Origin: Escherichia coli
GTDB lineage: Bacteria > Pseudomonadota > Gammaproteobacteria > Enterobacterales > Enterobacteriaceae
Assembly (NCBI RefSeq): GCF_003334255.1
Contig: NZ_QOWU01000070.1
Strand: one strand, 5' to 3'
DNA length: 19,728 nucleotides
The position numbers were made by a program, and so were the translations under genes. This document shows, in pieces, positions 545 through 15,599 of the stretch. Within the stretch, counting starts at the first letter, position 1. Each line of letters starts with the position of its first letter. The notes below the pieces were generated by a model that did not search any database, was not told where the DNA came from, and saw nothing but the letters and a program-made list of their open reading frames with translations.

Positions 545-3256
545 CTACATTCCAGGTGATGGTGGCGTCCACTCATTATCCTGAACTGGAGTATAAGATG
601 TGTCATTCCCCCCGGATATGCTTTTCTGTTGCCTGATATATTCGTGGTAGTACTGTTCACTACGCTGACGATGTAAATCCACATCCGGGCGGCTGATTAC
701 AAAGTGTCCATTTCCGGTTATTCCAGCTGCATTATGCCAGGCCACCATTTCCGCAAATACATCATTAAACTGTTGATATGAGCCTTCCGGTTCAAAACCC
801 ATTCCAGGCTCACGATCAAACAATACAGGAGCAATCAGATTCAGCTTATCCACCAGTTCATTTCTGTCCTGATGATGGTAGAACACCACACGGTCCCCAT
901 AATCCACACAGACTAACTCGCCATTCCTCCGATCACGAAAACGCACACTGCCATCTTTCTGCAGACGGGCTTCGAGAACGCCAGTGTCTTCATAAAGTGG
1001 AGTTCCTCCCGGTTCACAGATAATCACGCAGCGGTCGGCATTCGTTGTTCGTCGCTTGTCTTTGCGACGATCACGATAATCCCAGCCACGTAACTGTGAT
1101 ACTGCAGCTCTGTCTCCCTGTACCGCCTGTTGCTCCACCCACTGCCGGTAGGACAAAGGATACCACTTACCCTCCGCAATCAGTGACAACCGCTCTTCCT
1201 TCACACTCTCCTTCAGCCTGATCAGCGCCTGCATACGCTGCACTTCCGCAATATGGTAATGCAGCTTACGCAATTGTGGATCCCGGAACTGCACGCGGAT
1301 ATACGCCTTGCGCCGACGGCAGGCAGCATGAATTTCCCGTAACCGTTCTCCGTAACGTAAGTCGGGTTTACGCCAGTGCTCCTTCCATGCAAGATAACGC
1401 GCGCGCAAATCTTCCCGCGCAGCTGCACGGGCTTCACGGCGTTCACGACGCAGTACAGGATCGCGCCGGAAGCCGGGCTCCACTTCATCGCTGGCAGCAA
1501 GTTCCGGATTGTAGCGACATTCAGGCTTCACCCGTTCAAATATATCTGCACCTGCGATCTCAAATGGCCCTGCCTGCGGCTCAGCCCTGGATAATGTCAA
1601 ATCCGGGTGGATACTGCTGGCCTTCACTGGTGTCAGCTCATGATTAAACGCATCCACAATCACAAGACCATGATGCTGTTTCTGCAACATAAGCCCTTTA
1701 CGCGCAAACATCTCATGGCACGCCTGCCAGCTGAAATTCCCGCCCGCGATCATATCTTCAATCAACGACTCACACTGAACAGTCGTGTACCCCCACAGAC
1801 TTTCCTTATCAGAAAACAGTTCGCGCTTTATTGCTCCCTGTGGACCTGTCCCCATCCGCATACGATACCATTCGTAATCACTGACAGCCCGGGTACCGGT
1901 ACTGTGCCCCCGGAATCGTTCTCCGGGGACGACCTGGGTAAAAATATCCTTCGGTACAGGCTGCCATCCGCCTTCCTGATCCTGCATGTAATCCAGCGTC
2001 ATTAACGGCCACACACTGTCTGCACGTACTGGTGTCTGTTGTTTATCAAATCCATCATGCAGTACCAGATGCCCGTGCTGGATCCCCATCCATAATCCAG
2101 CCTTTGCCAGAGTTCTGTGCACATCCAGGCAACTTTCCAGCTCACCATTTCTCGCCATTTCCGGTAAGCGTTCGGCAAAATGACGGCAGGCGTACTGTTT
2201 CAGACTCTCCGTTTCTGCCACTTTTTCCGGCCGGATATCAACGTTTATCGCTTCCGGATCATAACGACCGGGTGTCCCCACCTGACTGAAAATATCTGTC
2301 GGTACAGGCTGATATTCTCCCAGTTTCCGCCCCAGTCTTTCAGCCGTCCATGACGGGCCGAACGAACTGAGCACAACACCTTCCCGCGATCTGTCCCAGC
2401 CATCCTTCACCACCAGTTCTCCCTCCTGCATCGTGATATACAGACCATCACGGGCCAGCCGTTTATGCAAAGACAACCAGTCCTGGGCGGGTTCTTCACG
2501 CAGCCCGGCAATCGACATCTGCGCAATATATTCCCTGAAGGTCTGCTTTTTCCCGCGTCGCCAGGCATTACGGCGCTCACGTACCAGCGCTGTTTTACGC
2601 ACAATACGGTTGCCCGGTGCATGCACAAAACACCCGTTATCCGGTGCAAATCCGTGCTTAAGTTCAAGTTCACGGCATGCACGACTGAGTTTTTCCTTGC
2701 TCCACGGAAGGCAATTGATATAGCCGGTTTCAGGATGAACACGATTCACTGCAACATGTACATGCAGGTTATCGGTGTCTGTATGAACGGCAGCTACATA
2801 CTGATGTTTTGAAAGTTCAAGGGATTTCAGTGTGTGACGTACGCAGTCAAAAAGCTGCTCAGGACGCGGGCTTTCATGCGCAGGCCAGGAAAGAATGTAG
2901 TGAAAAACAGGGTCTGTATCATCTTTGGAAAAATGAGCAAGGTCTGCTGCTTTCTGCATTTCTTCAGCCGCAGATTCAAGAGACAAACAGTTATGAAAGC
3001 AGGTCACACCATAGAAATTCACCCACTGACTGCCGTCTTCCATTACATCAATCAGGGATACAAATTTTTCGTTACGCAGGCGTGTGGCATAGTCAACAAG
3101 CCGTCTGAAGCGGTTACGGTGCGGGACCTCACCTTTCATTTCCGGGTCTGGTTTGAGTTCATCATCCTGCACATCATCCCGCACAGACGTGTACGCAATC
3201 AGGTCTTCAAAGGAAGACCTTCCGTCACGTCTTTTGGGCGGAATGATAGCATTCAT
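545..3256 (-). CDS. nikB: MOBP-family conjugative relaxase (NikB-like), 903 aa
   Basis: Relaxase histidine motif HTDTDNLHVHVAVNRVHPETG (HxDxxxxHxH type). Size and N-terminus (MNAIIPPKRRDGRSSFEDL) fit my memory of IncI1 R64 NikB (~900 aa). Lies directly downstream of a nikA-like gene and oriT. Confidence 0.88.
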   Translation of the reverse strand: MNAIIPPKRRDGRSSFEDLIAYTSVRDDVQDDELKPDPEMKGEVPHRNRFRRLVDYATRLRNEKFVSLIDVMEDGSQWVNFYGVTCFHNCLSLESAAEEMQKAADLAHFSKDDTDPVFHYILSWPAHESPRPEQLFDCVRHTLKSLELSKHQYVAAVHTDTDNLHVHVAVNRVHPETGYINCLPWSKEKLSRACRELELKHGFAPDNGCFVHAPGNRIVRKTALVRERRNAWRRGKKQTFREYIAQMSIAGLREEPAQDWLSLHKRLARDGLYITMQEGELVVKDGWDRSREGVVLSSFGPSWTAERLGRKLGEYQPVPTDIFSQVGTPGRYDPEAINVDIRPEKVAETESLKQYACRHFAERLPEMARNGELESCLDVHRTLAKAGLWMGIQHGHLVLHDGFDKQQTPVRADSVWPLMTLDYMQDQEGGWQPVPKDIFTQVVPGERFRGHSTGTRAVSDYEWYRMRMGTGPQGAIKRELFSDKESLWGYTTVQCESLIEDMIAGGNFSWQACHEMFARKGLMLQKQHHGLVIVDAFNHELTPVKASSIHPDLTLSRAEPQAGPFEIAGADIFERVKPECRYNPELAASDEVEPGFRRDPVLRRERREARAAAREDLRARYLAWKEHWRKPDLRYGERLREIHAACRRRKAYIRVQFRDPQLRKLHYHIAEVQRMQALIRLKESVKEERLSLIAEGKWYPLSYRQWVEQQAVQGDRAAVSQLRGWDYRDRRKDKRRTTNADRCVIICEPGGTPLYEDTGVLEARLQKDGSVRFRDRRNGELVCVDYGDRVVFYHHQDRNELVDKLNLIAPVLFDREPGMGFEPEGSYQQFNDVFAEMVAWHNAAGITGNGHFVISRPDVDLHRQRSEQYYHEYIRQQKSISGGNDTSYTPVQDNEWTPPSPGM

Positions 3257-4253: not shown

Positions 4254-5102
4254 TCAGACTCGTGGCGGCAATGCACCAGGATAATGACGTGCAATAATAT
4301 CATTCAGTTTTTCAACAAGGTCAGGACACTTAAAGACAATATGTACGGTCCCTTTCTGGTAGCCACGCACCGTAAAATATTCCCCTTCAAACAACTCACC
4401 GATATTGTCGCCGTTCCCGAGATATTCACCATACTGCGCCCCGATGCTGTTCCTGAAGTCAGGAACGTTGCGTCCCTCCAGCAGATAAAACGGACGTACC
4501 AGGTCATCCAGTGCCTCCCGTCCGCTGCAGTCCAGCGTCACACGCCCGTTACTCCAGCGGTACAGCAGGTTTTCAATAATGATTTTCTTGCCCAGACGGC
4601 AGGGATTATTGGTTCTGTAATCCCATGACAATTTCCGGTAGACATCAATCAGTCCCTGTTCAAATGTCTGCATCTTGCTGGCATTCAGATGGCGAAAAGT
4701 TGCCAGTACATTGTCCAGGGTGATTTCAGGACAGGTGTCGCTCATCAGCTGGCTGTTCCACTCATCACGCTGGCATGAACTCATGAAGGTGTACATCCCC
4801 GTATCCGCCATCAGGCGGTCCCAGATTTTACGGTCGGCAAGACGGGTGATATTCTTTTTTGCTTCTTCCGGTTTATCCATGCATCGAACGGAGTCAGTCA
4901 CGCAGTCTTCAAACCCGTAGAGAAAAATGTCACCAGAAGCATCGAGCAGAATCCTGCGTGCTGTCGCCAGGCATTCCATCGCCTGCATGAACAGTGCAAT
5001 ACCTTCGTTACGCTGCGCGATAATGCGGTCGATGGCCACAGACGGAATAATATCTGTCGTGCCGGCAGTATTCAGGTCAGCAGTGGGTAAAGTCTGATTC
5101 AT
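4254..5102 (-). CDS. Hypothetical protein, first gene of the leading region (possibly DUF4942-like), 282 aa
   Basis: Long ORF; ATG at 5100-5102 with SD GAGGAG 8 nt upstream (the track start is a GTG one codon earlier). No methyltransferase, HExxH or nuclease motif seen by eye. The family assignment is from memory and weak. Confidence 0.75.
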   Translation of the reverse strand: MNQTLPTADLNTAGTTDIIPSVAIDRIIAQRNEGIALFMQAMECLATARRILLDASGDIFLYGFEDCVTDSVRCMDKPEEAKKNITRLADRKIWDRLMADTGMYTFMSSCQRDEWNSQLMSDTCPEITLDNVLATFRHLNASKMQTFEQGLIDVYRKLSWDYRTNNPCRLGKKIIIENLLYRWSNGRVTLDCSGREALDDLVRPFYLLEGRNVPDFRNSIGAQYGEYLGNGDNIGELFEGEYFTVRGYQKGTVHIVFKCPDLVEKLNDIIARHYPGALPPRV

Positions 5103-5152
5103 CACATTGTCTCCTCATCGTCACGACTGCCGGGTCAGCCAGGTCATTTCCC

Positions 5153-5463
5153 GGAGGAGCGAAGCTCCTTCTGCCGTCCGGGTCTTCGGGGATTTCCCCG
5201 CAGTGGACCTTTCCGACGGGGGACGCTCACCACGTCACGGGGCAGTTGTCCGGGGGCAGACGCAAAAGTTTTTGACGCCTGCGGCAAAAAGTTTTGTGGC
5301 TGGTACATCTCTCCCCTGGACGACTGAAACGGGATGTGGTCGTGTATGTACCCCCGGAAAGTCCGTCTGCGGAGAACAGGCCGCAGTGCGGCGGCAGACA
5401 GGCAGAGACAGCTGCGCCATCAGGCGCAGTGGCATTACACACCGTCAGGTGTGCAGGGAGCGC
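5153..5463 (+). promoter_or_regulatory. Structured GC-rich element resembling a single-stranded-DNA promoter (Frpo/ssi type), copy 1
   Basis: No credible coding despite many overlapping ORFs; dense hairpins (GGAGC gaa GCTCC, CGGGGAttTCCCCG, CTGCGCC atca GGCGCAG, CACACC gtca GGTGTG); contains TTGACG inside a hairpin; paralogous to 8317-8626. Confidence 0.6.
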
Positions 5464-5578
5464 CGCATCCGGCGCGACTGAAGAAAAACGACGGCACAAC
5501 AATGGCATGTGGTGGTCACTGGCACACCACTCCCGCACAGGTGAAAACAGAGAAAACCGCACGACATCTGCAATTAAA

Positions 5579-5667
5579 AAAAGTGAAATTTCTTCACTTT
5601 TTCACACTTATTTTTCGCGCTGATTTGGTGATTATGGTGATAAAATAAAGTGAAGTTTTTTCACTTT
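5579..5667 (+). promoter_or_regulatory. Twin operator-like palindromes and promoter upstream of the HTH gene
   Basis: Two copies of AAAGTGAA-N5/6-TTCACTTT (5579-5600 and 5647-5667) flanking an AT-rich -10-like stretch, ending 15 bp before the ATG at 5682. Confidence 0.55.
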
Positions 5668-5681
5668 TTCAAAGGTGTTTT

Positions 5682-5963: not shown

Positions 5964-6122
5964 CTACTGCTCATCAGGAAACAGCTTTTTCAGTTCTTCA
6001 CCGGAAAGTCCCGTGACCTCCTGAATCCGTTCCGGCGGCCAGCCCATATTCCAAAGCCGGCAGGCTATTTCCCGCGCCACTTCAAGTGCGCCTTTTTGAA
6101 TAAGACGTTCTGCAATCGTCAT
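5964..6122 (-). CDS. Free-standing RpnS-like small protein (paralog of the Rpn C-terminal domain), 52 aa
   Basis: MTIAERLIQKGALEVAREIACRLWNMGWPPERIQEVTGLSGEELKKLF parallels the C-terminal tail of the adjacent Rpn protein; own ATG at 6120-6122 with SD CAGGAG; separated from rpn by a terminator hairpin. Confidence 0.6.
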   Translation of the reverse strand: MTIAERLIQKGALEVAREIACRLWNMGWPPERIQEVTGLSGEELKKLFPDEQ

Positions 6123-6146
6123 GCTGTTTGCTCTGCTCCTGCTGAC

Positions 6147-6172
6147 AAAAAAGCCCGGGATTTTGCCGGGCT
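6147..6172 (-). terminator. Rho-independent terminator immediately after the rpn stop codon
   Basis: Minus strand: stem AGCCCGG / CCGGGCT (6152-6172) followed by TTTTT (6147-6151). Confidence 0.6.
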
Positions 6173-6184
6173 TTGTGGTTCTCA

Positions 6185-7147
6185 TCAGTAAGTGATTTTC
6201 TTCAGTTCGTCATCGGAAAGTCCGGTAGCCTGCTTAATCTGCTCCGGCGTCATCCCCATTTTCTGAAGCTGGCACGCAATAGCCAGGGCTTTTTCAAGCG
6301 CTCCTTCCATGCGTCCTTCCATGCGTCCTTCCATGCGTCCTTCCATCCTGCCTTCCTGGCGACCTTTTTGCTCAAGACGTTCTGCGATAGTCATCAGTTT
6401 ATCCTCATGCTGCGGCAGACGCTCAGCCAGCGCCCGCATAAATTCCGGTGATACAGAGTCCCCTGCGTTAACGATGTAATGAATCAGAACACGCACCTGC
6501 TCGTCTGAAATTTCCACCATGACCTGCGGGAGTTTGTCCAGCAGCTCCATCATGTCACGATGGCGGATATGCTTCATCAGCAGCGTCAGTGCGGCCATCC
6601 GGCGATGGTTCATGATTTCATTGTCATCAACGACAGTGATATCAACCAGCGGAAACGGCTTTGTGTATATTTTAGCCGCAAGTGCCGGATTCTCAAAACA
6701 GTCCAGCCAGTTCATGCTGTACGGGTACGGGCTGCGCTCACCGTGATAGAACAGCACCGGAATCACCAGTGGCAACGTTTTGTGCTGCTCCAGATGTCTC
6801 TGCATCGCCGCCACACTGTAGCGTAACATGCGAAAAGGCATGTACAGATTTTCTGTGCTCTGGTGCTCGATGAGCGTATAAACATAGCCGTCTTCACCCC
6901 CGGTGGTTTTCACGCTCCAGAGGATATCGCTGGCGTACTGATGCAGGTCCGGCTCTACAAAGGTGGCGGGTTCCAGCTTCAGCGTGGACAGGTCGCACAA
7001 CTGCCGGTACTCCGCCGGAAGATGCAGTTCCAGAAAATCTCTGGCGACGTCGGGATTCGCCAGGAACGACCGGAACGCGGCATCATGCGGCGTGGGCGTT
7101 GTGGTGGTTTTCTTCTTACTCACTTTCCCTCCATGAGTTATTATCAC
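6185..7147 (-). CDS. Rpn-family (YhgA-like, PD-(D/E)XK) recombination-promoting nuclease with internal RpnS-like start
   Basis: N-terminus TPHDAAFRSFLANPDVARDFLELHLPAEYRQLCDLSTLKLE and the core ASDILWSV ... YVYTLIEHQS closely parallel E. coli RpnA as I recall it. C-terminal repeat linker and tail are present; an internal ATG at 6392-6394 with SD GAGGA would give a 69-aa C-terminal product. True start may be the GTG at 7121-7123 (SD GGAGGG). Confidence 0.8.
   Translation of the reverse strand: MIITHGGKVSKKKTTTTPTPHDAAFRSFLANPDVARDFLELHLPAEYRQLCDLSTLKLEPATFVEPDLHQYASDILWSVKTTGGEDGYVYTLIEHQSTENLYMPFRMLRYSVAAMQRHLEQHKTLPLVIPVLFYHGERSPYPYSMNWLDCFENPALAAKIYTKPFPLVDITVVDDNEIMNHRRMAALTLLMKHIRHRDMMELLDKLPQVMVEISDEQVRVLIHYIVNAGDSVSPEFMRALAERLPQHEDKLMTIAERLEQKGRQEGRMEGRMEGRMEGRMEGALEKALAIACQLQKMGMTPEQIKQATGLSDDELKKITY
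6302..6349 (-). repeat. In-frame 12-bp tandem repeat (3 perfect + 1 variant unit) encoding (EGRM)n in the Rpn linker
   Basis: Plus-strand unit TCCTTCCATGCG repeated head-to-tail; translates on the minus strand to RMEG repeats (QEGRMEGRMEGRMEGRMEG). Confidence 0.9.
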
Positions 7148-7204
7148 CGGAATTATACGCCCGTGCGGTACGCACCTGCCACGGGCAGAAAGAAGGGAAC
7201 AGAT

Positions 7205-7534
7205 TTACAGTCGTGTATACAGCCCGGTATCCCGGGTAAAAAGCCACTGCAGCTGATCGCAATAAATCCCCTCGTGCTCCGATATCTGCGCTATCCGGGA
7301 ACCCTGTTTGCTGTAAAACGTCACCGTGTAATCATCGGCAAACGTTAATTTGATCCGGACAATATTAATATTATTTTTCGCAAAATATGACGGTAACTGA
7401 AAGCATAAACCGCATTCACCATTATCATCAAAATAAGCCAGATTTTTAGCGCCGGTCATAACAACAAATCGCTGGCTCCCCAGCTGTCCGAGAATTGTTT
7501 GAGCGACATGTTCAGCATAACTCATATTCTTCAT
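7205..7534 (-). CDS. Hypothetical protein, 109 aa
   Basis: ORF in an AT-rich block behind structured element copy 2; weak SD; no recognisable motif. Confidence 0.6.
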   Translation of the reverse strand: MKNMSYAEHVAQTILGQLGSQRFVVMTGAKNLAYFDDNGECGLCFQLPSYFAKNNINIVRIKLTFADDYTVTFYSKQGSRIAQISEHEGIYCDQLQWLFTRDTGLYTRL

Positions 7535-7600
7535 TCTAATATCCTGACGAGAGATATGCCGCAGGAGACACGACTACCTGCGACACTGATAATTGGGGAC

Positions 7601-7918
7601 TCAAGTTCTGTTACGCACAACTGCAAAGAGATATTTTTTCTGGCTTATAACTTTGCATTTTATTAAACGGGCTATTTCCCTGTAGTCTTTATTAAGAGGA
7701 ATATGAATCATGTCCCCGTTCAGTTCATTAAAAACGCACCCTTTTATATATAACGTCTCATTCATGATAAAACCATACATTGAAAAATGCTGATTTTCAT
7801 ACTCTTTACTGATTAAGTGAAAATATCCCTCCAGCAGTTCCTGCGGGGGATGTGGATCAATCATCCAGTTATCACCAATATATGAACATACTTCTGTTAT
7901 CGTTGTCTGAAATGTCAT
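7601..7918 (-). CDS. Hypothetical protein, 105 aa
   Basis: ORF with SD GGGGG 5 nt upstream of the ATG; strongly AT-rich relative to neighbours; no recognisable motif. Confidence 0.65.
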   Translation of the reverse strand: MTFQTTITEVCSYIGDNWMIDPHPPQELLEGYFHLISKEYENQHFSMYGFIMNETLYIKGCVFNELNGDMIHIPLNKDYREIARLIKCKVISQKKYLFAVVRNRT

Positions 7919-7975
7919 GTTACCCCCTGAAGTAAAAACTTATGATGTGAAATGGGGCGTTTCCGCCCCCTGGTA

Positions 7976-8110
7976 TCACATGGCGTAGCCTCTGAGGTGG
8001 TCCAGCCACCAACAGAACTCGTGCCATTCGTCGCCTTTCATTGGCGGAATGCGTGTGGGTTGTCCTTTGACAACCGCATCAGCAAGGGTTACGATTTGTC
8101 TGAGTGACAT
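7976..8110 (-). CDS. Hypothetical small protein, 44 aa (MSLRQIVTLADAVVKGQPTRIPPMKGDEWHEFCWWLDHLRGYAM)
   Basis: ATG at 8108-8110 preceded by AAGGAT; the longer 75-aa ORF in the track would read through the upstream GC hairpin motif. First gene downstream of structured element copy 2. Confidence 0.5.
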   Translation of the reverse strand: MSLRQIVTLADAVVKGQPTRIPPMKGDEWHEFCWWLDHLRGYAM

Positions 8111-8316
8111 AATCAATATCCTTACAAAGGTTGTTGATATCCGTGCAAAGGGGTGTTCCCGCCCCCCTGGCACACCCACTAACCTCCTTTTCCTTCCCGG
8201 CATTCCCTCACGCTGTGCGTGATTTACATCGTTCTCACCTCCTTCACTGGGTTGTTTCTGTTCGCTAAAAAATGGTCAGGTTGTTAAAGAGCGGCACGGT
8301 ATGTTCAGGCATCTTC

Positions 8317-8626
8317 ACAGGAGCGAAGCTCCTTCTGCCGTCCACTTCTTCGGGGTTTCTCCCGCTGTGGACCTTTCCGATGGGGGCCCGTTTACCGCCT
8401 CACGGGACAGCTGTCCGGGGGCGGACGCAAAATTTTTAGCCGGGTTCATGGCTAAAAATTTTGTGGCCGGTGCATCTCACCCTGGACAGATGGAACGGGA
8501 GGGGGTTACGTCTGCCCCCCGGAAAGTCCACAGCGGGAAACAGGCCGCAGGGGTGGCGGCAGGAGGGAGGACTGCTGCGCCATCAGGCGCAGTTTCCTCA
8601 CACACCGTCAGGTGTGCAGGGAGCGC
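8317..8626 (+). promoter_or_regulatory. Structured GC-rich element resembling a single-stranded-DNA promoter (Frpo/ssi type), copy 2
   Basis: Shares blocks with copy 1 (GGAGCGAAGCTCCTTCTGCCGTCC, GTGGACCTTTCCGA, GTCCGGGGGC-GACGCAAAA, CCCGGAAAGTCC, CTGCGCCATCAGGCGCAGT, ACACACCGTCAGGTGTGCAGGGAGCGC). Contains a perfect 14-bp hairpin CAAAATTTTTAGCC / GGCTAAAAATTTTG (8428-8463). Confidence 0.6.
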
Positions 8627-9015
8627 AGGTCACGGCGCGACAGGGGCGGCGCGACCGGAACGGTCGCTGCAAGCCGGGTTTTCACGCATCGGACCGTAGC
8701 GGCAGCCCGAAACCGCGCCAGCGGGTTCGGCGGAGACTGGCGGGTGCGCCAGCAGCTGCCCGTCGGAGTCGGGCCTGACGACCGGATGCCGCCAGGCAGC
8801 CGGGAGCCGAAGTGGGCGCAATAAAAGACAGCCAGAAACGGTGACAGTGTCACGGAATATCACTCCTGTTCCCTGCATACAGCCATACACTACCTTCTGA
8901 CCGGAAAGCCGGGCCGGCAGCGCCGCAGGCGCTGCACCCCGCGTTTCCGGCAGGCGTCAGCCTGCCTGGGGTTTTCGCGCGGGCTGACAGGCGGCCTCCA
9001 CCGCCTGCCCCTGTA

Positions 9016-9207
9016 TCACCTGTTTCTGCTGCCCTGAAGGATGTAGTGACCGCCCAGGAAAACCGCCTGCTGATTCGCCACAAAATCGCAGATTTCATCA
9101 ACAATCTGCGCGGTGGTGAGCGGTTTCTGCCCCATTTCACGACGCCGCGCATTAATCACGGCCCTGTAATTACGCAGAATTTCGCGGGTTTCTGTGCTGA
9201 TATTCAT
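9016..9207 (-). CDS. Hypothetical small protein, 63 aa, translationally coupled to the upstream gene
   Basis: ATG overlaps the stop of the 9204-9626 gene (ATGA). Confidence 0.6.
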   Translation of the reverse strand: MNISTETREILRNYRAVINARRREMGQKPLTTAQIVDEICDFVANQQAVFLGGHYILQGSRNR

Positions 9208-9626
9208 GACATCGTCTCCCCGTCCAGCGCCTGTAACACAACGTCCATTGCTTCGCGTTCCTCCCTGACGAATGCGTCACCGTCGCCCCCGTTCTCACTC
9301 CCGACGGCATACAGGCGCTTCATTTCACTGCCTGCCAGCGCCATCACTTTTTCCAGCATCACCGCCGGGACTGTCACATGACGGCTGGCGCGCTTTTCTT
9401 CCATCAGTTCACGAACAACGTCGTGAACAACGCTGACATCCGCACCATGCTCAAAGGCATCGTCCAGTCGCTGCATGACGGTTTCCAGCTCATCGTCTGA
9501 CAGGTTCCAGTCCTGGGCTATGTGACGCACATCCCCACGGGTCAGCACCACGGCAAAAACGCATTCACTGTCCGGCACGTCTGTATCCAGTACATCGCGG
9601 ATGATTTCTTTAACAGTACAGTACAT
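9204..9626 (-). CDS. Acidic hypothetical protein, 140 aa (possibly DUF1380-like, a family often next to ArdB/KlcA genes)
   Basis: ATG with SD AAGGAGACG; acidic composition; family name from memory only. Confidence 0.65.
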   Translation of the reverse strand: MYCTVKEIIRDVLDTDVPDSECVFAVVLTRGDVRHIAQDWNLSDDELETVMQRLDDAFEHGADVSVVHDVVRELMEEKRASRHVTVPAVMLEKVMALAGSEMKRLYAVGSENGGDGDAFVREEREAMDVVLQALDGETMS

Positions 9627-9672
9627 GTTCTCGTCTCCTTTACAGGGGCGGCATTGCCGCCCCGTCCGTTAA

Positions 9673-10098
9673 TCAGTCAAGTGCAGCGTAAATCGCGTTG
9701 CATTCGGGGTGAAATTCGATGTGGCTCCACAACTGCGCATCGCGCATCCTGTACAGGTGTGTCAACCCTGCATCCCCGCTGTCGTGGTACAGCCACAACT
9801 GGCGGTTAATCACAAGGGAAGTCAAAATGATGCCTGCGGCATCAGCACTCACGGTACGGTCAAACCAGTTTTCACCGTTGACCAGATGAAAACGGTCGCC
9901 ATCCGGCATCATGTAACCGCCACCGTCCGGCAGGCGGATGAAGTGCCAGAATCCGCCTTCATATTCCGGCATCATTTTTTTCGCCAGCGCGTATACAGAC
10001 GCTTCGGCATACAGAAAATCCAGGCCAAACAGGTAAGGCAGAAAAGACAGACGGTCGCACTCTTCAACGTTCAGAGTGACAGGTTTCGCATACTGCAT
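9673..10098 (-). CDS. ArdB/KlcA-family antirestriction-like protein, 141 aa
   Basis: Start MQYAKPVTL with SD GGAGG 6 nt upstream (the track ORF begins earlier at 10179). Motifs FLPYLFG, EGGFWHFIRLPDGGGYMMPDGD and SADAAGIILT match my recollection of the KlcA/ArdB/YfjX family. Confidence 0.7.
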   Translation of the reverse strand: MQYAKPVTLNVEECDRLSFLPYLFGLDFLYAEASVYALAKKMMPEYEGGFWHFIRLPDGGGYMMPDGDRFHLVNGENWFDRTVSADAAGIILTSLVINRQLWLYHDSGDAGLTHLYRMRDAQLWSHIEFHPECNAIYAALD

Positions 10099-10140
10099 GG
10101 GATTTCCTCCGTTGTTCACATATTCCGCGACACCGGGCGG

Positions 10141-10364
10141 TGCCGTGCCTCCATCTTTGCCGGGCCTGCAGGGTTGCAAGGGCGCAAGGGAAGCCGCAGC
10201 CTGACGCGCACGGCTGACGGGAGTTGGAGGGTGAGACCGCGAAATCTGAGCGGGTGAACGACCGGAAAATCACGGCAGACGGGAAGGAGGGACCGGGTGA
10301 CCGCAGCGGTTCACCTTACCTTGCAACCCGCCCGCAGAAGCCCGGCTACGATGGAGGCACGGCA
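10141..10364 (+). promoter_or_regulatory. Long imperfect hairpin (about 225 bp) upstream of the klcA-like operon; possible third ssDNA promoter/ssi element
   Basis: Outer arms TGCCGTGCCTCCATC (10141-10155) and GATGGAGGCACGGCA (10350-10364) are exact reverse complements; inner arms GCCGGGC...GGTTGCAAGG / CCTTGCAACC...GCCCGGC also pair; nested palindromes CGGGTGAACGACCGG and GGTGACCGCAGCGGTTCACC. Confidence 0.5.
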
Positions 10365-10511
10365 CAGCCCGCACACGACGCTGAGGCCACATAACTGAAA
10401 ACCCACAAGGCCATGCCCCGCATGGCCGGGTAAAGCGGAGCCTGCGGCGACATCCTTTTGCTCTTTCCGGGGACCGGCTGGAAAAGGCGGAGATTTTCCC
10501 CGCCAGCGTCA

Positions 10512-10835
10512 TCATTTCCGGATTTTCGCCAGTGCATCCGCCATGCTGCGGATTTCAGTCCGGGCTTCCAGGACCACCTCCCGCAGAATATCCCGGTCAA
10601 ACCAGCGACGGGACGGTTCATCAGGTATACGCAGCACATCGCAGGCCAGCCCACTGGACAGGATATGCTCCACACACTCACTGACCAGATACATTTCCAC
10701 CGACGAAAAACGAGCGCCACGGTTCAGAATGGCATCGAGCACCACGGGCAGATTTTCGTCATCTTCATCAAGCCAGCAGGGGTAATCGCTTTCCTTCACA
10801 ACCAGACGAAAGCGGCGCGTCTGGCGGGTCAGCAA
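10512..10835 (-). CDS. Hypothetical acidic protein, up to 107 aa (start uncertain)
   Basis: ORF with TTG start in the track and no clear SD; contains the acidic stretch [12 protein letters not shown]; real start could be internal. Confidence 0.45.
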
Positions 10836-11114
10836 CGTCTGACCGGTGGTGGTCAGCGCCGCCCGGATACGCGGGCATCTTCTGCCACTTGGTAACAGAT
10901 GCTTCGTACTGCATTGCGCACTGCATCAAGAACTGCCCTGATTTCGTCTTCGGTCAGCCATTCTCCGGCATACGGGAAAAACACCTGTGTTCCGTCTGCC
11001 GGAAGTACCGGCAGCGACTGCCACTGACTGCCGGACAGTACCAGTTCCGCCCCGGTTCCGGTCAGTTTCTGAATGGCGGAGGCCAGGAGCGGCGGCAGTA
11101 CGCCGCCGTGACGG

Positions 11115-11756
11115 TTGATAAGTAACGTCCGGAAAAACTTCAGCGTCATTCTTGAGCGTACGGTACGCGAACTCAACGGCGAGTCCTGCATATCCCTGGA
11201 AGAAGCACCACCGGCAAAACAACAGATTGTCTGTAGTCGCAGTTTTGGTGAACGAATCACAGACAAAGATGCCATGCACCAGGCTGTTGTTCAGTATGCA
11301 GAGCGGGCCGCAGAGAAACTACGTGGGGAGCGTCAGTATTGCCGGCAGGTGACGACATTTGTACGGACATCCCCCTTTGCAGTAAAAGAACCCTGTTACA
11401 GCAATGCCGCTGTGGAAAAGCTTTCATTGCCCACACAGGACAGCCGGGACATTATTGCCGCCGCATGCAGAGCCTTAAACCATGTCTGGCGTGAAGGGTA
11501 CCGCTATATGAAGGCAGGAGTCATGCTGGCTGATTTCACTCCATCGGGTATAGCGCAGCCGGGATTATTTGATGAAATCCAGCCCCGTAAAAACAGTGAA
11601 AAGTTAATGAAAACACTCGATGAACTGAACCAGTCGGGAAAAGGGAAAGTGTGGTTTGCGGGGCGAGGAACCGCCCCTGAATGGCAAATGAAACAGGAAA
11701 TGCTATCGCCTTCGTATACAACACAATGGACTGAGATCCCCATTGCTTCATTCTGA
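11115..11756 (+). pseudogene. impB: impB/umuC/mucB-family error-prone polymerase gene, 3' half only
   Basis: [13 protein letters not shown] ... [11 protein letters not shown] ... TTFVRTSPFA ... PTQDSRDIIAAA ... YMKAGVMLADF ... LFDE ... WQMKQEMLSPSYTT aligns to the C-terminal ~210 residues of MucB/UmuC as I recall them. An in-frame TGA at 11109-11111 and non-homologous sequence upstream show the N-terminal half, and any impA/impC, are missing. Confidence 0.85.
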
Positions 11757-11760
11757 TATA

Positions 11761-12153
11761 TCAGAATAATTTTTTCATTTTAAGACGCACATCATTCATT
11801 GCCTTCTGCACCGAATCCGTAGCAGAAGGAGGCATTTTTTCAGCAGATTGCGAAGCACCGAGTTCAGTCAACACAGCTCTGATATCGGCCTGAGAAGGCT
11901 TCCATCCAGTCGTCTGACTGAGTAAGGTTACAACCTGATCTGCTGAAAACTCCTCGCTCAAAATGGCAGTCAGCAATACAGGCAGGCGAGGATCAAGTTG
12001 GTGTAACGCCATTCCAGAAATAAATGCATTCCGGAACAGCTCACCACGCTCAGAACGCGGAACGGACTCTATCGCTTCCAAAGTTTGAAAGTCTGCAGCT
12101 TTTTCCGGATGCAGATAAAGTGTGTATTTTTTCCTTTTCCGTTCATCGTCCAC
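11761..12153 (-). CDS. stbB: Partition adaptor StbB/ParR-like protein, about 131 aa
   Basis: Immediately downstream of the actin-type ATPase gene; GTG at 12151-12153 with SD AAAGAGGAG 7 nt upstream, just after the stbA stop (the track ATG at 12189 would overlap stbA by 32 nt). Assignment rests mainly on position. Confidence 0.55.
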   Translation of the reverse strand: MDDERKRKKYTLYLHPEKAADFQTLEAIESVPRSERGELFRNAFISGMALHQLDPRLPVLLTAILSEEFSADQVVTLLSQTTGWKPSQADIRAVLTELGASQSAEKMPPSATDSVQKAMNDVRLKMKKLF

Positions 12154-12157
12154 AATA

Positions 12158-13129
12158 TTACTCCTCTTTGAAAGCCGCGATAGCTTCAACCAGTGCTGTC
12201 TGTGGCGACTCCATCATCACTACTTTTTGCCCAAGATGGTGCCATGCCGTTTTTATCGAATCATAGATCAACGGGGCCCCACCACCGACAACATAAACAC
12301 GATTCACATGATGGAAATCACCGAGCTCATTGACTACTTGCTCCCCCAGACTGGCAATAGCCCCCTCAATGGTATTAAGGACCAGATCAGTTTTTGTTTC
12401 GTCATTTATAACCTGCCGAACAAAGTCCGGGTCATTACGACGTTTAATCAATTCATCTGCAACGAGGAAACTGGTATCACTGGATGCCATGCGCAATGCA
12501 CTCATTGCAGCTTTCGTAACTGAAGACACACCAATGCCAGAATTACCATGAATGGCACTTACAGAGTCAAATTGACCAACGATAACACCAACATCAAGCG
12601 TAGTGCCGCCAATATCAACTACCAGCGATTTTTCGAACTGACCAACTTTATCCATGACCAGACGAGAAAACACAGCTGGCAATGATTCAGGCATCACATC
12701 AACGTGTTCAATGGTGAAAACATCGCCTTTATTAAGACGAATCGGCCTCATTAAATTCTCAATTTTACGCTGAATGTTGAGTTCATTTTTTTGACACTCT
12801 TTCGTGTAGAACTCACTGATAGGCAAAGTCACAGTCAATGATACAGGCTGAGGCGCTAATCCACTATTCAGTAAAGCGTGATGCACAGCTAACAGGTTAA
12901 CATCCGTATATTGATACTCAATATGAGTCGTAAGAATAGATTGGTTACTAACTTCATCATACGTGTATTTTTTACCATCCAGTTCATAGTTAAATGTCTG
13001 GCGAATCCCTAACCCGTCAACCTTCCATCCATGACGAAATGAGTTTTGCGACAACGACTTACAGATTTTCCCATTGTCATTCCATGCCAACTTGATTGTT
13101 GTTGAACCATCATCGCAGTATACGTTCAT
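12158..13129 (-). CDS. stbA: Actin-like plasmid segregation ATPase (ParM/StbA family), 323 aa
   Basis: N-terminus MNVYCDDGSTTIKLAW parallels R1 ParM (MLVFIDDGSTNIKLQW), with phosphate motifs DIGGTTLD and VVGGGA; SD AAGGGG upstream of the ATG. Confidence 0.85.
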   Translation of the reverse strand: MNVYCDDGSTTIKLAWNDNGKICKSLSQNSFRHGWKVDGLGIRQTFNYELDGKKYTYDEVSNQSILTTHIEYQYTDVNLLAVHHALLNSGLAPQPVSLTVTLPISEFYTKECQKNELNIQRKIENLMRPIRLNKGDVFTIEHVDVMPESLPAVFSRLVMDKVGQFEKSLVVDIGGTTLDVGVIVGQFDSVSAIHGNSGIGVSSVTKAAMSALRMASSDTSFLVADELIKRRNDPDFVRQVINDETKTDLVLNTIEGAIASLGEQVVNELGDFHHVNRVYVVGGGAPLIYDSIKTAWHHLGQKVVMMESPQTALVEAIAAFKEE

Positions 13130-13357
13130 CTATAGCCCCTTAAATACTCAATCTGAGTAAATCACTGTTTCTGGTTGCAAGGTAATACTCAATTTGAGCA
13201 CCATCATAGTTATGAAATCACAAAACACAAGTATTATTTATTACATCACATGACTCACTTCATATTTCATACTTCATAAATGTGAACGCATATTGACACC
13301 TCAGGTTACCGTGTCAAAATATCATCATACTTCACACATCACATTTATGAGGTTGCA
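13130..13357. promoter_or_regulatory. AT-rich divergent promoter / centromere-like repeat region between stbA and parA
   Basis: Direct repeats AATACTCAATCTGAGTA (13143-13159) and AATACTCAATTTGAGCA (13183-13199), plus repeated ACTTCATA / ACATCACAT motifs; lies between divergently transcribed partition operons. Confidence 0.55.
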
Positions 13358-14002
13358 ATGATTACTGTAGTTGGTGGGAACAAAGGTGGTTCAGGGAAAA
13401 CTACCATTGCATCAAACCTGGCTATTGCTCTCGCAAATAAAGGAAGGGAAGTCTGCCTGTTAAACGGAGATCTACAACGAACAGCCGCAAAACATCATGC
13501 GGAACGAGAAGCTGCAGGACTGTTACCAGCAATAACCCTTGTTGAGAAATTTGATAATCTGACACAAACACTACAGGCTCTGAATGAAAAGTTCGATGAT
13601 GTAATAGTGGATGTCGCAGGAAGAAACTCAAAGGAATTCATAACGAGTGGAGTTGTCGCACATCAAATAATTGCGCCACTACAGTGTTCTCAACCAGATC
13701 TGGATACTCTTACAGAACTAGAACAACAGATAGACGCAATGCGTAACCTTAACCCGGAACTTAAGGTTTATTGTTTACAAAGTATGGCAACAACCAATCC
13801 GGTTTTGAGGGGAAATGAGAGAAAAGAATTCCTTGAATATCTTGAAGAATTCCCAACAATTCAAGTCCTGGATTCAGTTATTTGTTTCAGAAAAGTCTAT
13901 CGCGATTGCATGAGCAACGGCACCGGTGTAGTAGAAACGAACAATACAGCAGCCAAAGCAGAAATTGAACATTTAATGAATGAGGTATTTGGCCCATGGT
14001 GA
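13358..14002 (+). CDS. ParA-family (small, ParF-like) partition ATPase, 214 aa
   Basis: Deviant Walker A VVGGNKGGSGKTT near the N-terminus; SD GAGG upstream of the ATG. Confidence 0.85.
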   Translation: MITVVGGNKGGSGKTTIASNLAIALANKGREVCLLNGDLQRTAAKHHAEREAAGLLPAITLVEKFDNLTQTLQALNEKFDDVIVDVAGRNSKEFITSGVVAHQIIAPLQCSQPDLDTLTELEQQIDAMRNLNPELKVYCLQSMATTNPVLRGNERKEFLEYLEEFPTIQVLDSVICFRKVYRDCMSNGTGVVETNNTAAKAEIEHLMNEVFGPW

Positions 14003-14271
14003 AAAAACCCAGCCAGCAAGCATTAAACAGAGCTGCAGTTACGGTAGAACAAGCAGAGGCTCTGGCTCAGCGCCTTGCGGATAAACCATACGGCGCGCCG
14101 GAAAAAACCGAACCAGAAAAACAATGTCGGACGACAATCTCTCTTGGTGAAAGCATGCTTGTCACAATAGAAGATCTGGCATTGAGGAATAAACGCAATG
14201 GTAAAGATCCAAAAAATGTAAGTGCCATCGTCAGAGTAGCCCTTGAGCAATACTTAAAAACACTAACGTAA
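13996..14271 (+). CDS. Small partner protein of ParA (possible ParG/RHH-type centromere-binding protein), 91 aa
   Basis: Start overlaps the parA stop (ATGGTGA), indicating translational coupling; small, charged. Function inferred from position. Confidence 0.5.
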   Translation: MVKKPSQQALNRAAVTVEQAEALAQRLADKPYGAPEKTEPEKQCRTTISLGESMLVTIEDLALRNKRNGKDPKNVSAIVRVALEQYLKTLT

Positions 14272-14340
14272 TAATCAAGAAGTTATTACTTATGAAATCA
14301 CACTTGTGAATTCATACTGTTTAAGCACCCTTGCATACAA

Positions 14341-14371
14341 GAGATCACATATTGCAGTGGTCTCTTTTATT
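14341..14371 (+). terminator. Rho-independent terminator after the parA operon
   Basis: Stem GAGATCAC / GTGGTCTC (one G-U pair), 8-nt loop, followed by TTTTATT. Confidence 0.6.
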
Positions 14372-14401
14372 ACAGAATAATTCATAATTATGATTTGTGA
14401 A

Positions 14402-15184
14402 TTATGCGTGTCTGTTTTTCAGCATTGTGACCGCATCGGACTCAGGCATCAAAAACTGCACCCGGTGCCGTGCAGCCACATCCAGTGCAAACACCTTCGT
14501 GTAGACCTCCGTTGAGCTGATGGACTTATGCCCCATCAGGCTCTGCAGGACCTTCAGCGGTATACCGGCATACAGCATGTGCATCGCATAGGAATGGCGG
14601 AACGTATGTGGCGTGACCGGGACAGAGAACGTCACACCATCAGCGGCAGCGGCGGCAACCGCCTCCCCAATCCAGGTCCTGACCGTTCTGTCAGTCACTT
14701 CCCAGATCCGCGCTTTCTCTGTCCTGCCTGTTCGTTTATTACGCCGTTCCATGGGGATTTTCAGTGTTGCCACCATCGTCTGCAGCTGGCTGACGTACCA
14801 GGAGTCGGAGAGCGGAACCAGCCGGTGAGTCTGCTGACCGGCGGGCATTCTTCCTGCCGTCCTGGCGGCTTTTTCTGTCCGCTGCTTCAGAGTGGCCAGT
14901 TGCACAAACGGATACGGGGGCGCAAGCGAAAAATCCCCCCGCGTCAGCGCCAGTGCTTCATTAATGCGCGCACCGGTGTTCCACAGTGTGGCCAGCAGCA
15001 TCTTGCGGCGCAGATCCGGGACGTAATGGAGCAGGGCGCTCACTTCAGGGGCCAGCAGGTATTTTGGCAGTTCATCATGAACCATCGACATCTGGCGGAG
15101 TGCCAGCGCTGCCGGATAATCGATGGCAACAGGAAGCTGAGCAGCATCCCGGGCATGGTGGATCGGTGCCGGCAGGTGCTGCAT
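14402..15184 (-). CDS. Tyrosine site-specific recombinase (XerD/ResD-like), 260 aa
   Basis: C-terminal catalytic signature HTFRHSYAMHMLYAGIPLKVLQSLMGHKSISSTEVYTKV and upstream TLWNTGARINEAL (R...H..R..Y). The ATG at 15182-15184 sits 1 nt after the upstream gene stop; the track ORF begins earlier at 15337. Confidence 0.88.
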   Translation of the reverse strand: MQHLPAPIHHARDAAQLPVAIDYPAALALRQMSMVHDELPKYLLAPEVSALLHYVPDLRRKMLLATLWNTGARINEALALTRGDFSLAPPYPFVQLATLKQRTEKAARTAGRMPAGQQTHRLVPLSDSWYVSQLQTMVATLKIPMERRNKRTGRTEKARIWEVTDRTVRTWIGEAVAAAAADGVTFSVPVTPHTFRHSYAMHMLYAGIPLKVLQSLMGHKSISSTEVYTKVFALDVAARHRVQFLMPESDAVTMLKNRHA

Positions 15185-15185
15185 A

Positions 15186-15599
15186 TCAGTGTTCACTCCA
15201 CGGGGAAACGTCGGGCAGGTTTTCCACAACACGGTACTTTCCCGGATAACGGAGCTGGTTACCGCCATGCGTCCGGACGGTGACAACAAAACCCCCTCCC
15301 TGGTTGTTTTCGGGGAGCAGGCGATCGCACTGCTCACTCAGCATGTGGATCACAAACGGCGCATCGCTGCCGTCTTCAAATACCAGTTCCAGCGCATCGC
15401 GGCCATTCAGCGTTCCCTTACTGATGATGACGTACTCAGCCCCCCGCATCTCCCTGAGTAAATGTTTTGCCGCATCCGGGACAAGCAGCCTGGCTGCGCC
15501 GGCATTCCAGCTGAGGTAGACATATCCGGCCTGCGCCTGTACAGACTGCCAGTAATCCGTTCTGGCGACAGCCTGACCTTCATTCTCAATAAAAAACAT
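15186..15599 (-). CDS. Hypothetical protein encoded directly upstream of, and co-transcribed with, the recombinase, 137 aa
   Basis: ATG at 15597-15599 with strong SD AAGGAG 7 nt upstream; stop adjacent to the recombinase start (TGATATG). Confidence 0.7.
   Translation of the reverse strand: MFFIENEGQAVARTDYWQSVQAQAGYVYLSWNAGAARLLVPDAAKHLLREMRGAEYVIISKGTLNGRDALELVFEDGSDAPFVIHMLSEQCDRLLPENNQGGGFVVTVRTHGGNQLRYPGKYRVVENLPDVSPWSEH

Follow-up and report, generated by a model that had tools for sequence, protein, structure and literature searches.

A probable class 2 single-stranded DNA promoter (ssp2 orthologue) upstream of klcA in the leading region of an Escherichia coli plasmid

Results

The window analyzed here, the whole stretch of 19,728 nucleotides from Escherichia coli contig NZ_QOWU01000070.1, belongs to a conjugative or mobilizable enterobacterial plasmid. 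The genes nikB and nikA and the oriT region extend from 545 to about 3900. The leading genes lie on the minus strand and form a run with synteny to the leading region of pESBL-EA11, an IncI1 plasmid (pESBL below). Leading-region genes are described as being transcribed toward oriT, with the transferred strand serving as the template (PMC11541004; PMC12672017). On the basis of this polarity and the synteny, we take the plus strand of the window to be the transferred (T) strand.

The operon of interest begins with a klcA/ardB-type anti-restriction gene. Its product matches Pfam PF03230 (E = 3.6e-26) and, among PDB entries, KlcA (2KMG, E = 3e-18) and ArdB (2WJ9), and it is identical to YfgB of the F plasmid at 134 of 141 residues (95%). 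A DUF1380 gene and a 63-aa open reading frame follow, in a gene order common to F and pESBL. The klcA start codon (10098-10096) lies 35 nt from the base of a large hairpin, which is the subject of this study. A linear scan of 9600-11400 found no conventional sigma-70 promoter on either strand, which fits a promoter confined to the hairpin without being positive evidence for one.

On the other side of the hairpin, the upstream operon is closed by a terminator-like GC hairpin followed by a T run. In pESBL, this terminator is kept upstream of both klcA and ardA, and the unit duplicated there is a terminator-plus-hairpin module of about 350 nt (window 10105-10457 corresponds to pESBL 13957-14309, 87%). 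The yffB-like gene upstream of the hairpin (10512-11734 region) is truncated at about 11129 and abuts part of a Y-family polymerase (impB-like) gene (11128-11734), this part being 98% identical to pESBL. Comparison with pESBL also showed the window to lack the M.EcoGIX methylase operon together with its class 3 promoter. The coordinates of the features, including the putative promoter elements, are collected in Table 1.

Table 1. Features of the window relevant to the hairpin upstream of klcA; promoter elements and start site are predicted
Feature	Position	Strand	Basis or remark
nikB	545-3256	-	nikA adjoins, also on the minus strand; oriT region just beyond
Class 1 (Frpo/ssi-like) hairpin, copy 1	5150-5478	+	precedes DUF4942 gene
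Class 1 (Frpo/ssi-like) hairpin, copy 2	8319-8641	+	precedes minus-strand ORFs ending in Rpn-family gene
Small ORF, 63 aa, operon gene 3	9016-9207	-	ORF list, annotated relative
DUF1380 gene, operon gene 2	9204-9626	-	annotation of 99.9%-identical record
klcA/ardB-type anti-restriction gene, 141 aa, operon gene 1	9673-10098	-	Pfam, PDB, F YfgB
Shine-Dalgarno GGAGG	10106-10110	-	7 nt ahead of klcA ATG
Whole hairpin, probable class 2 ssDNA promoter/ssp2 orthologue	10134-10371	+ (transferred strand)	repeat, fold, homology
Hairpin arms	10134-10165/10340-10371		32 nt, 91% complementary; inverted-repeat search
Outer stem, 5' (template) arm	10134-10155	+	pairs with 10350-10371; holds predicted start site
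Predicted transcription start, an A	10146	-	7 nt after -10; from hexamer position
Template-arm spacer	10159-10173	+	15 nt; 19 nt in F/pESBL
Apical domain, 122 nt	10182-10303	+	purine-rich, T-poor (G52 A31 C29 T10); weakly paired
-35-like hexamer TTGCAA, 3' arm	10321-10326	+	fully paired with 10174-10179
Promoter spacer, 3' arm	10327-10346	+	20 nt; 15 nt in F/pESBL
-10-like hexamer TACGAT, 3' arm	10347-10352	+	faces 10153-10158 (ATCTTT), mismatches at positions 1 and 3
Outer stem, 3' (non-template-like) arm	10350-10371	+	inverted repeat, fold
Terminator-like GC hairpin and T run	10404-10432	-	closes upstream operon

An inverted-repeat search delimited the imperfect hairpin to 238 nt. The first-pass annotation, which was made from the sequence alone, had placed a hairpin of about 225 bp at 10141-10364; the structure is present and slightly larger. 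The exact 15-bp outer arms noted at that stage (10141-10155 and 10350-10364) are correct and can be extended to a core of 16 bp (10140-10155 and 10350-10365). The inner arms also pair as claimed, in an exact 11-bp helix (10171-10181 with 10319-10329). The outer stem consists of 21 bp and one G.A mismatch at 10139/10366, and its 5' arm is invariant in all 15 variants examined. Solid duplex is limited to the basal ~50 bp of the hairpin, and the apical ~120 nt are purine-rich and weakly paired. The earlier description of further nested palindromes therefore overstates the apex.

Structure prediction, proposed in the first-pass annotation as a check, gives a stable fold. As single-stranded DNA, the plus strand reaches -75.7 kcal/mol, compared with -54.1 ± 3.6 kcal/mol for dinucleotide shuffles (z = -6.0), and none of 200 shuffles is as stable. 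The minus strand folds to -71.8 kcal/mol (z = -5.7). In each of 13 hairpin variants, the T strand folds more stably than its complement (mean difference -8.6 kcal/mol), as expected if selection acts on the transferred strand and not on an RNA. A sliding 300-nt single-stranded fold of the plus strand over the whole window drops below -75 kcal/mol at 5101-5540 and 8241-8720, which correspond to the class 1 copies 1 and 2, and at 10081-10440, which is the present hairpin. A GC-rich stretch next to copy 2 (to about 9020) also falls under this value, but its GC-corrected residuals are small.

Promoter-like hexamers are present on the 3' arm. The assignment of arms, hexamers, and start site is our own reading of sequence and fold, according to which the 3' arm would act as the non-template strand and carry the putative -35 and -10 elements (Table 1). 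Transcription from the predicted start would yield a leader of 48 nt, with GGAGG located 7 nt before the klcA ATG. The motifs TTGCA[A/T] and TA[A/C]GAT occur on the 3' arm of every variant, and the spacer varies in both sequence and length. The upstream half of the -10 hexamer is unpaired or mismatched in all variants: positions 2-4 lie inside a 3x3 internal loop in the F/pESBL and Klebsiella types, and in the window type A(-11) is paired, with both neighbors mismatched. In the duplex, the klcA-facing strand reads TTGCAA-N15-AAAGAT, a poor promoter, which fits activity restricted to single-stranded DNA.

Compensatory changes are located in the -35 and spacer helices. At position 6 of the -35 hexamer, the window type has A-T where the F/pESBL type has T-A, and the pair next to this hexamer changes from C-G to T-A in the Klebsiella type. 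Within the F/pESBL/Klebsiella set, double changes affect 3 of 73 predicted pairs, most pairs being invariant; covariation statistics are weak because the family is narrow and young, with only three allele types. MAFFT misaligned the -35 segment between alleles, and those pairs were taken from per-sequence folds.

The three allele types are the window type, the F/pESBL type, and a type found in Klebsiella, Enterobacter, and Entomohabitans. In F and pESBL, the spacer measures 15 nt on the non-template-like arm and 19 nt on the template arm, the latter with a 4-5-nt bulge. In the window allele the bulge is on the opposite arm, giving spacers of 20 and 15 nt, respectively. The summed length is 35 nt in the window and 34 nt in F/pESBL, so that the arm average is 17.5 versus 17 nt. 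The window allele is common: of 5,090 matching records in complete E. coli genomes, about 1,600 reach at least 95% identity with it. It is unchanged in IncF plasmids, and an IncK2/Z plasmid matches the surrounding 1.4-kb region at 99.9%.

The apical domain contains an imperfect direct repeat of ~33 nt (10209-10241 and 10271-10306). Only 10% of the alignment columns vary within the apical 122 nt, compared with 52-61% in the -35 and spacer segments. This conservation exceeds what base pairing explains and lies outside the promoter model. A search of the apical domain for G-quadruplexes gave no canonical motif, and the Klebsiella-type variant lacks the middle G-run.

Alignments spanning the full hairpin and its flanks were obtained with the regions upstream of pESBL klcA, pESBL ardA, and F yfgB. 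The hairpin itself is 86-88% identical to these homologues (210-215 identical positions in 244 aligned columns), and BLAST shows collinearity of window 8292-11129 with both plasmids over 2.2-2.9 kb (94% identity to pESBL, 92% to F). A comparison with ssi elements of IncI/IncB/K plasmids had been suggested in the first-pass annotation; the alignments relate the hairpin to the class 2 hairpins of pESBL, and no cross-match of the hairpin to the ssi regions of pESBL or F was obtained. The sequence does not appear in the supplementary tables of Samuel et al. 2024.

In PLSDB, homologues are present in at least 5,000 plasmids. Among complete E. coli genomes, 3638 of 5426 carry the element, at 6629 places on plasmids and 79 on chromosomes, and 68 of 70 sampled rows had no annotated feature under the match. 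Scanning a one-genome-per-species collection with a 22-nt anchor returned 12 loci, and a metagenome scan with an apical anchor, from which common alleles were excluded, returned 5; both contained enterobacterial plasmid variants only. No copy was found in the viral collection. Near-identical segments occur in assemblies labeled Oscillospiraceae, Oscillibacter, Collinsella, Streptomyces morookaense, and Acinetobacter idrijaensis, which likely reflects mis-binning or contamination by enterobacterial plasmid DNA. One metagenome contig carries a copy (1071-1359) in which the 3' arm is replaced by unrelated sequence and the fold amounts to only -39 kcal/mol, making it a naturally disrupted allele.

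Two further strong hairpins of the window, the class 1 copies, are 80% identical to each other. The hairpin upstream of klcA is present in a single copy and shares no match longer than 9 nt with either of them, confirming the earlier statement that it is unrelated to them in sequence. The proposed layout of three hairpin-plus-operon modules also fits: copy 1 precedes the DUF4942 gene, copy 2 a run of open reading frames ending in an Rpn-family gene, and the present hairpin klcA, the DUF1380 gene, and the small open reading frame. Simple hexamer scans gave nothing convincing as -35 and -10 boxes in the class 1 copies of the window or in Frpo1/2 of F.

The window lacks ssb, psiB, psiA, and ardA (window 7135-8812 compared with pESBL 8827-15496). 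Copy 2 matches both ssi sites of pESBL, the one upstream of ssb and the one downstream of ardA, which suggests that the ssb-ardA region was deleted or replaced by recombination between class 1 repeats. The segment 7135-8291 has no match in pESBL or F.

Other repeats were noted in the same part of the window. A 12-nt tandem repeat, TCCTTCCATGCG, occurs about five times at 6290-6361, and a direct repeat of 109 nt (73%) links 5986-6094 with 6198-6306; both are located where the Rpn-family gene (6185-7147) ends and in the small open reading frame next to it (5964-6185). An AT-rich inverted and direct repeat at 5573-5681, AAAGTGAA...TTCACTTT (5578-5600 and 5647-5669), lies between copy 1 and a helix-turn-helix gene on the plus strand, where it may serve as an operator or mark a conventional promoter region.

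Discussion

Hairpins of this kind have been studied experimentally. According to the text of Wen et al. (NAR 2025, PMC12672017), homology-independent mining for hairpins below -75 kcal/mol was applied upstream of six operons that are induced in pESBL transconjugants. In the classification given there, class 1 comprises three Frpo/ssi1-3-like hairpins, class 2 comprises a pair of hairpins similar to each other, one 5' of klcA and one 5' of ardA, and class 3 is a single hairpin 5' of M.EcoGIX. The same text reports RNA-seq of transconjugants and 5'RACE starts that matched the predictions for all of them, and conservation of classes 2 and 3 in F. A study from January 2026 (bioRxiv 10.64898/2026.01.09.698686) named the F copy ssp2 and found that it drives yfgB. 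In that work, ssp2 stalled complementary-strand synthesis until UvrD opened the hairpin. This roadblock was insensitive to rifampicin and is therefore independent of transcription, and deletion of ssp2 lowered transfer into restriction-proficient E. coli.

The hairpin of the window shares with these elements its sequence, its leading-region location 5' of an anti-restriction gene, the fold of the T strand, and the -35 and -10 hexamers in the stem. We consider it very probable that it is an orthologue of the class 2 ssDNA promoter (ssp2) of IncI1 and IncF leading regions and that it works by the same mechanism. The initial suggestion of a third ssDNA promoter in front of the klcA operon, belonging to a family other than Frpo, gains support from this homology to experimentally studied copies. 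Both the promoter family and the orthologous loci in F and pESBL have already been described and tested.

The closest comparison is F ssp2, whose hairpin is 88% identical, sits likewise between a yffB-like gene and klcA/yfgB, and precedes the same operon. The outer stem, the apical domain, and the families of -35 and -10 hexamers are shared as well. The two differ in the non-template and template spacers, which are 15/19 nt in F and 20/15 nt in the window, and in the -10 element, which is TAAGAT within the 3x3 loop in F and TACGAT with two single mismatches in the window. In addition, the upstream operon is truncated in the window. The class 2 promoters of pESBL are 86% identical and belong to the same terminator-plus-hairpin module, with a spacer that differs from that of the window in the same way as the F spacer. 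However, pESBL has two class 2 copies, before klcA and before ardA, whereas the window has one and lacks ardA.

The class 1 elements Frpo and ssi1-3 (Masai & Arai 1997; Bates et al. 1999; Couturier et al. 2023, PMC9849209) resemble the hairpin in principle. They are T-strand hairpins that mimic a duplex sigma-70 promoter upstream of operons read toward oriT, and they are active only before second-strand synthesis, as would be expected of the class 2 hairpin by analogy. In contrast, their sequence is unrelated, they are longer (~325 nt versus 238 nt), and they are more stable (-100 to -114 kcal/mol). The elements of F also differ in their relation to replication: transcripts from class 1 hairpins can serve as primers for DNA synthesis, whereas a barrier role is reported for ssp2 (bioRxiv 10.64898/2026.01.09.698686). 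A more distant parallel is provided by the sso of rolling-circle plasmids and by ssi signals, which are folded DNAs recognized by host enzymes only when single-stranded (PMC7690428). These signals prime complementary-strand synthesis and do not express genes, whereas the F orthologue delays this synthesis, and nothing suggests that the hairpin described here is an origin.

Taking the published homologues as a guide, we propose that the plus strand would enter the recipient with its 5' end first, beginning at the oriT beside nikA, and that 10134-10371 would fold back on itself before the complement is made. The basal ~50 bp of the stem would then imitate a duplex sigma-70 promoter. The 3' arm would serve as the non-template strand, offering TTGCAA as the -35 and TACGAT as a partly premelted -10 element, and the 5' arm would serve as the template. 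RNA polymerase would start near 10146 and transcribe past the hairpin base into the operon of klcA, the DUF1380 gene, and the small open reading frame, producing an early and transient burst of the anti-restriction protein. Synthesis of the complementary strand would then remove the hairpin, and expression would cease because the TTGCAA-N15-AAAGAT left on the duplex is a poor promoter.

A second effect of the hairpin may concern replication. By analogy with F, the stable GC-rich stem would probably stall complementary-strand synthesis at its 3' edge (about 10371) until UvrD opens it. Such a stall would prolong the single-stranded state, and with it expression, between the hairpin and oriT. The roadblock function probably carries over to the window hairpin, since it has the same outer 21-bp stem as F ssp2.

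This identity also lends itself to an alternative account, in which the window allele is mainly or only structural, acting as a replication roadblock or priming (ssi) site with a weakened or lost promoter. The F roadblock does not depend on transcription, and the GC-rich outer stem that would stall a polymerase is unchanged from F ssp2; furthermore, the spacer on the non-template arm has grown from 15 to 20 nt relative to F and pESBL, and A(-11) forms a pair. Nevertheless, we regard a purely structural role as unlikely. Both hexamers are kept, the -35 being TTGCAA here and TTGCAT in the F/pESBL type, and the arm-averaged spacing is close to that of F and pESBL. The allele is also abundant, as described above, and it always lies directly upstream of klcA (the frame being unannotated in one record), without another recognizable promoter.

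Action at the RNA level, as a structured leader, an attenuator, or a terminator of read-through from the upstream operon, could be considered since the minus (RNA-sense) strand also folds well. The strand bias runs the other way, with the T strand the more stable one in every variant. The sense strand lacks a T run behind the hairpin, and the terminator-like hairpin at 10404-10432 is a separate structure a short distance upstream. In the window, the upstream operon is promoterless as well as truncated, and Rfam at gathering thresholds gave no match anywhere in the window. We therefore judge an RNA element highly improbable. The 32-nt terminal inverted repeats, the total length of 238 nt, and the short CAC/ACAC strings at the flanks could equally recall a miniature inverted-repeat transposable element or an IS remnant that landed upstream of klcA. 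A mobile element is hardly credible given that 99% of the copies lie on plasmids, that every locus inspected has the hairpin upstream of klcA/ardB or ardA, and that the flanks are conserved along with it, also at the ardA copy. Moreover, it is single in the window and absent from the viral collection. Protein coding across the hairpin was rejected because the alleles differ by indels in both arms, which would disrupt the frame of any open reading frame spanning them, and because family matches are absent: NCBIfam gave none for the three spurious frames crossing the hairpin, nor for the neighboring small proteins.

With the ssp2 reading preferred, the features that set the window allele apart deserve attention. 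The spacer is 20/15 nt here and 15/19 nt in the tested copies, and the promoter strength of the window allele could consequently differ or be lost. The shift of the bulge to the other arm at a kept summed length suggests that a kinked spacer of about 17 bp on average is a requirement of the promoter, and spacer alleles may tune the strength of the promoter or of the roadblock. The apical domain may be a recognition module, involved in upstream contacts of RNA polymerase, exclusion of SSB, loading of UvrD, or binding of another factor. The combined picture, a distinct and widespread allele with a required kinked spacer of ~17-bp average and an apex that serves as a specific recognition module, is tentative, and we hold it to be possible though rather doubtful. 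The arm-swapped spacer and the over-conserved apex may be new with respect to the published text available on these promoters.

Conclusions

The idea of ssDNA promoters, the homologous sequences, and the corresponding experiments were published in 2025-2026, and for this reason the present analysis adds little as a discovery. Its practical gain is one of annotation. About two-thirds of complete E. coli genomes have plasmids with homologues, and nearly all of the sampled records carry no annotation at this position; such an intergenic hairpin can be labeled as a class 2 ssDNA promoter (ssp2). The window allele is a natural variant that can be used to dissect the spacing rules of hairpin promoters. 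If the orthology proposed here holds, the element governs the speed with which a conjugative plasmid brings its anti-restriction protein into action in a new host, and in F, ssp2 also determines the time for which the whole leading region remains single-stranded and expressed.
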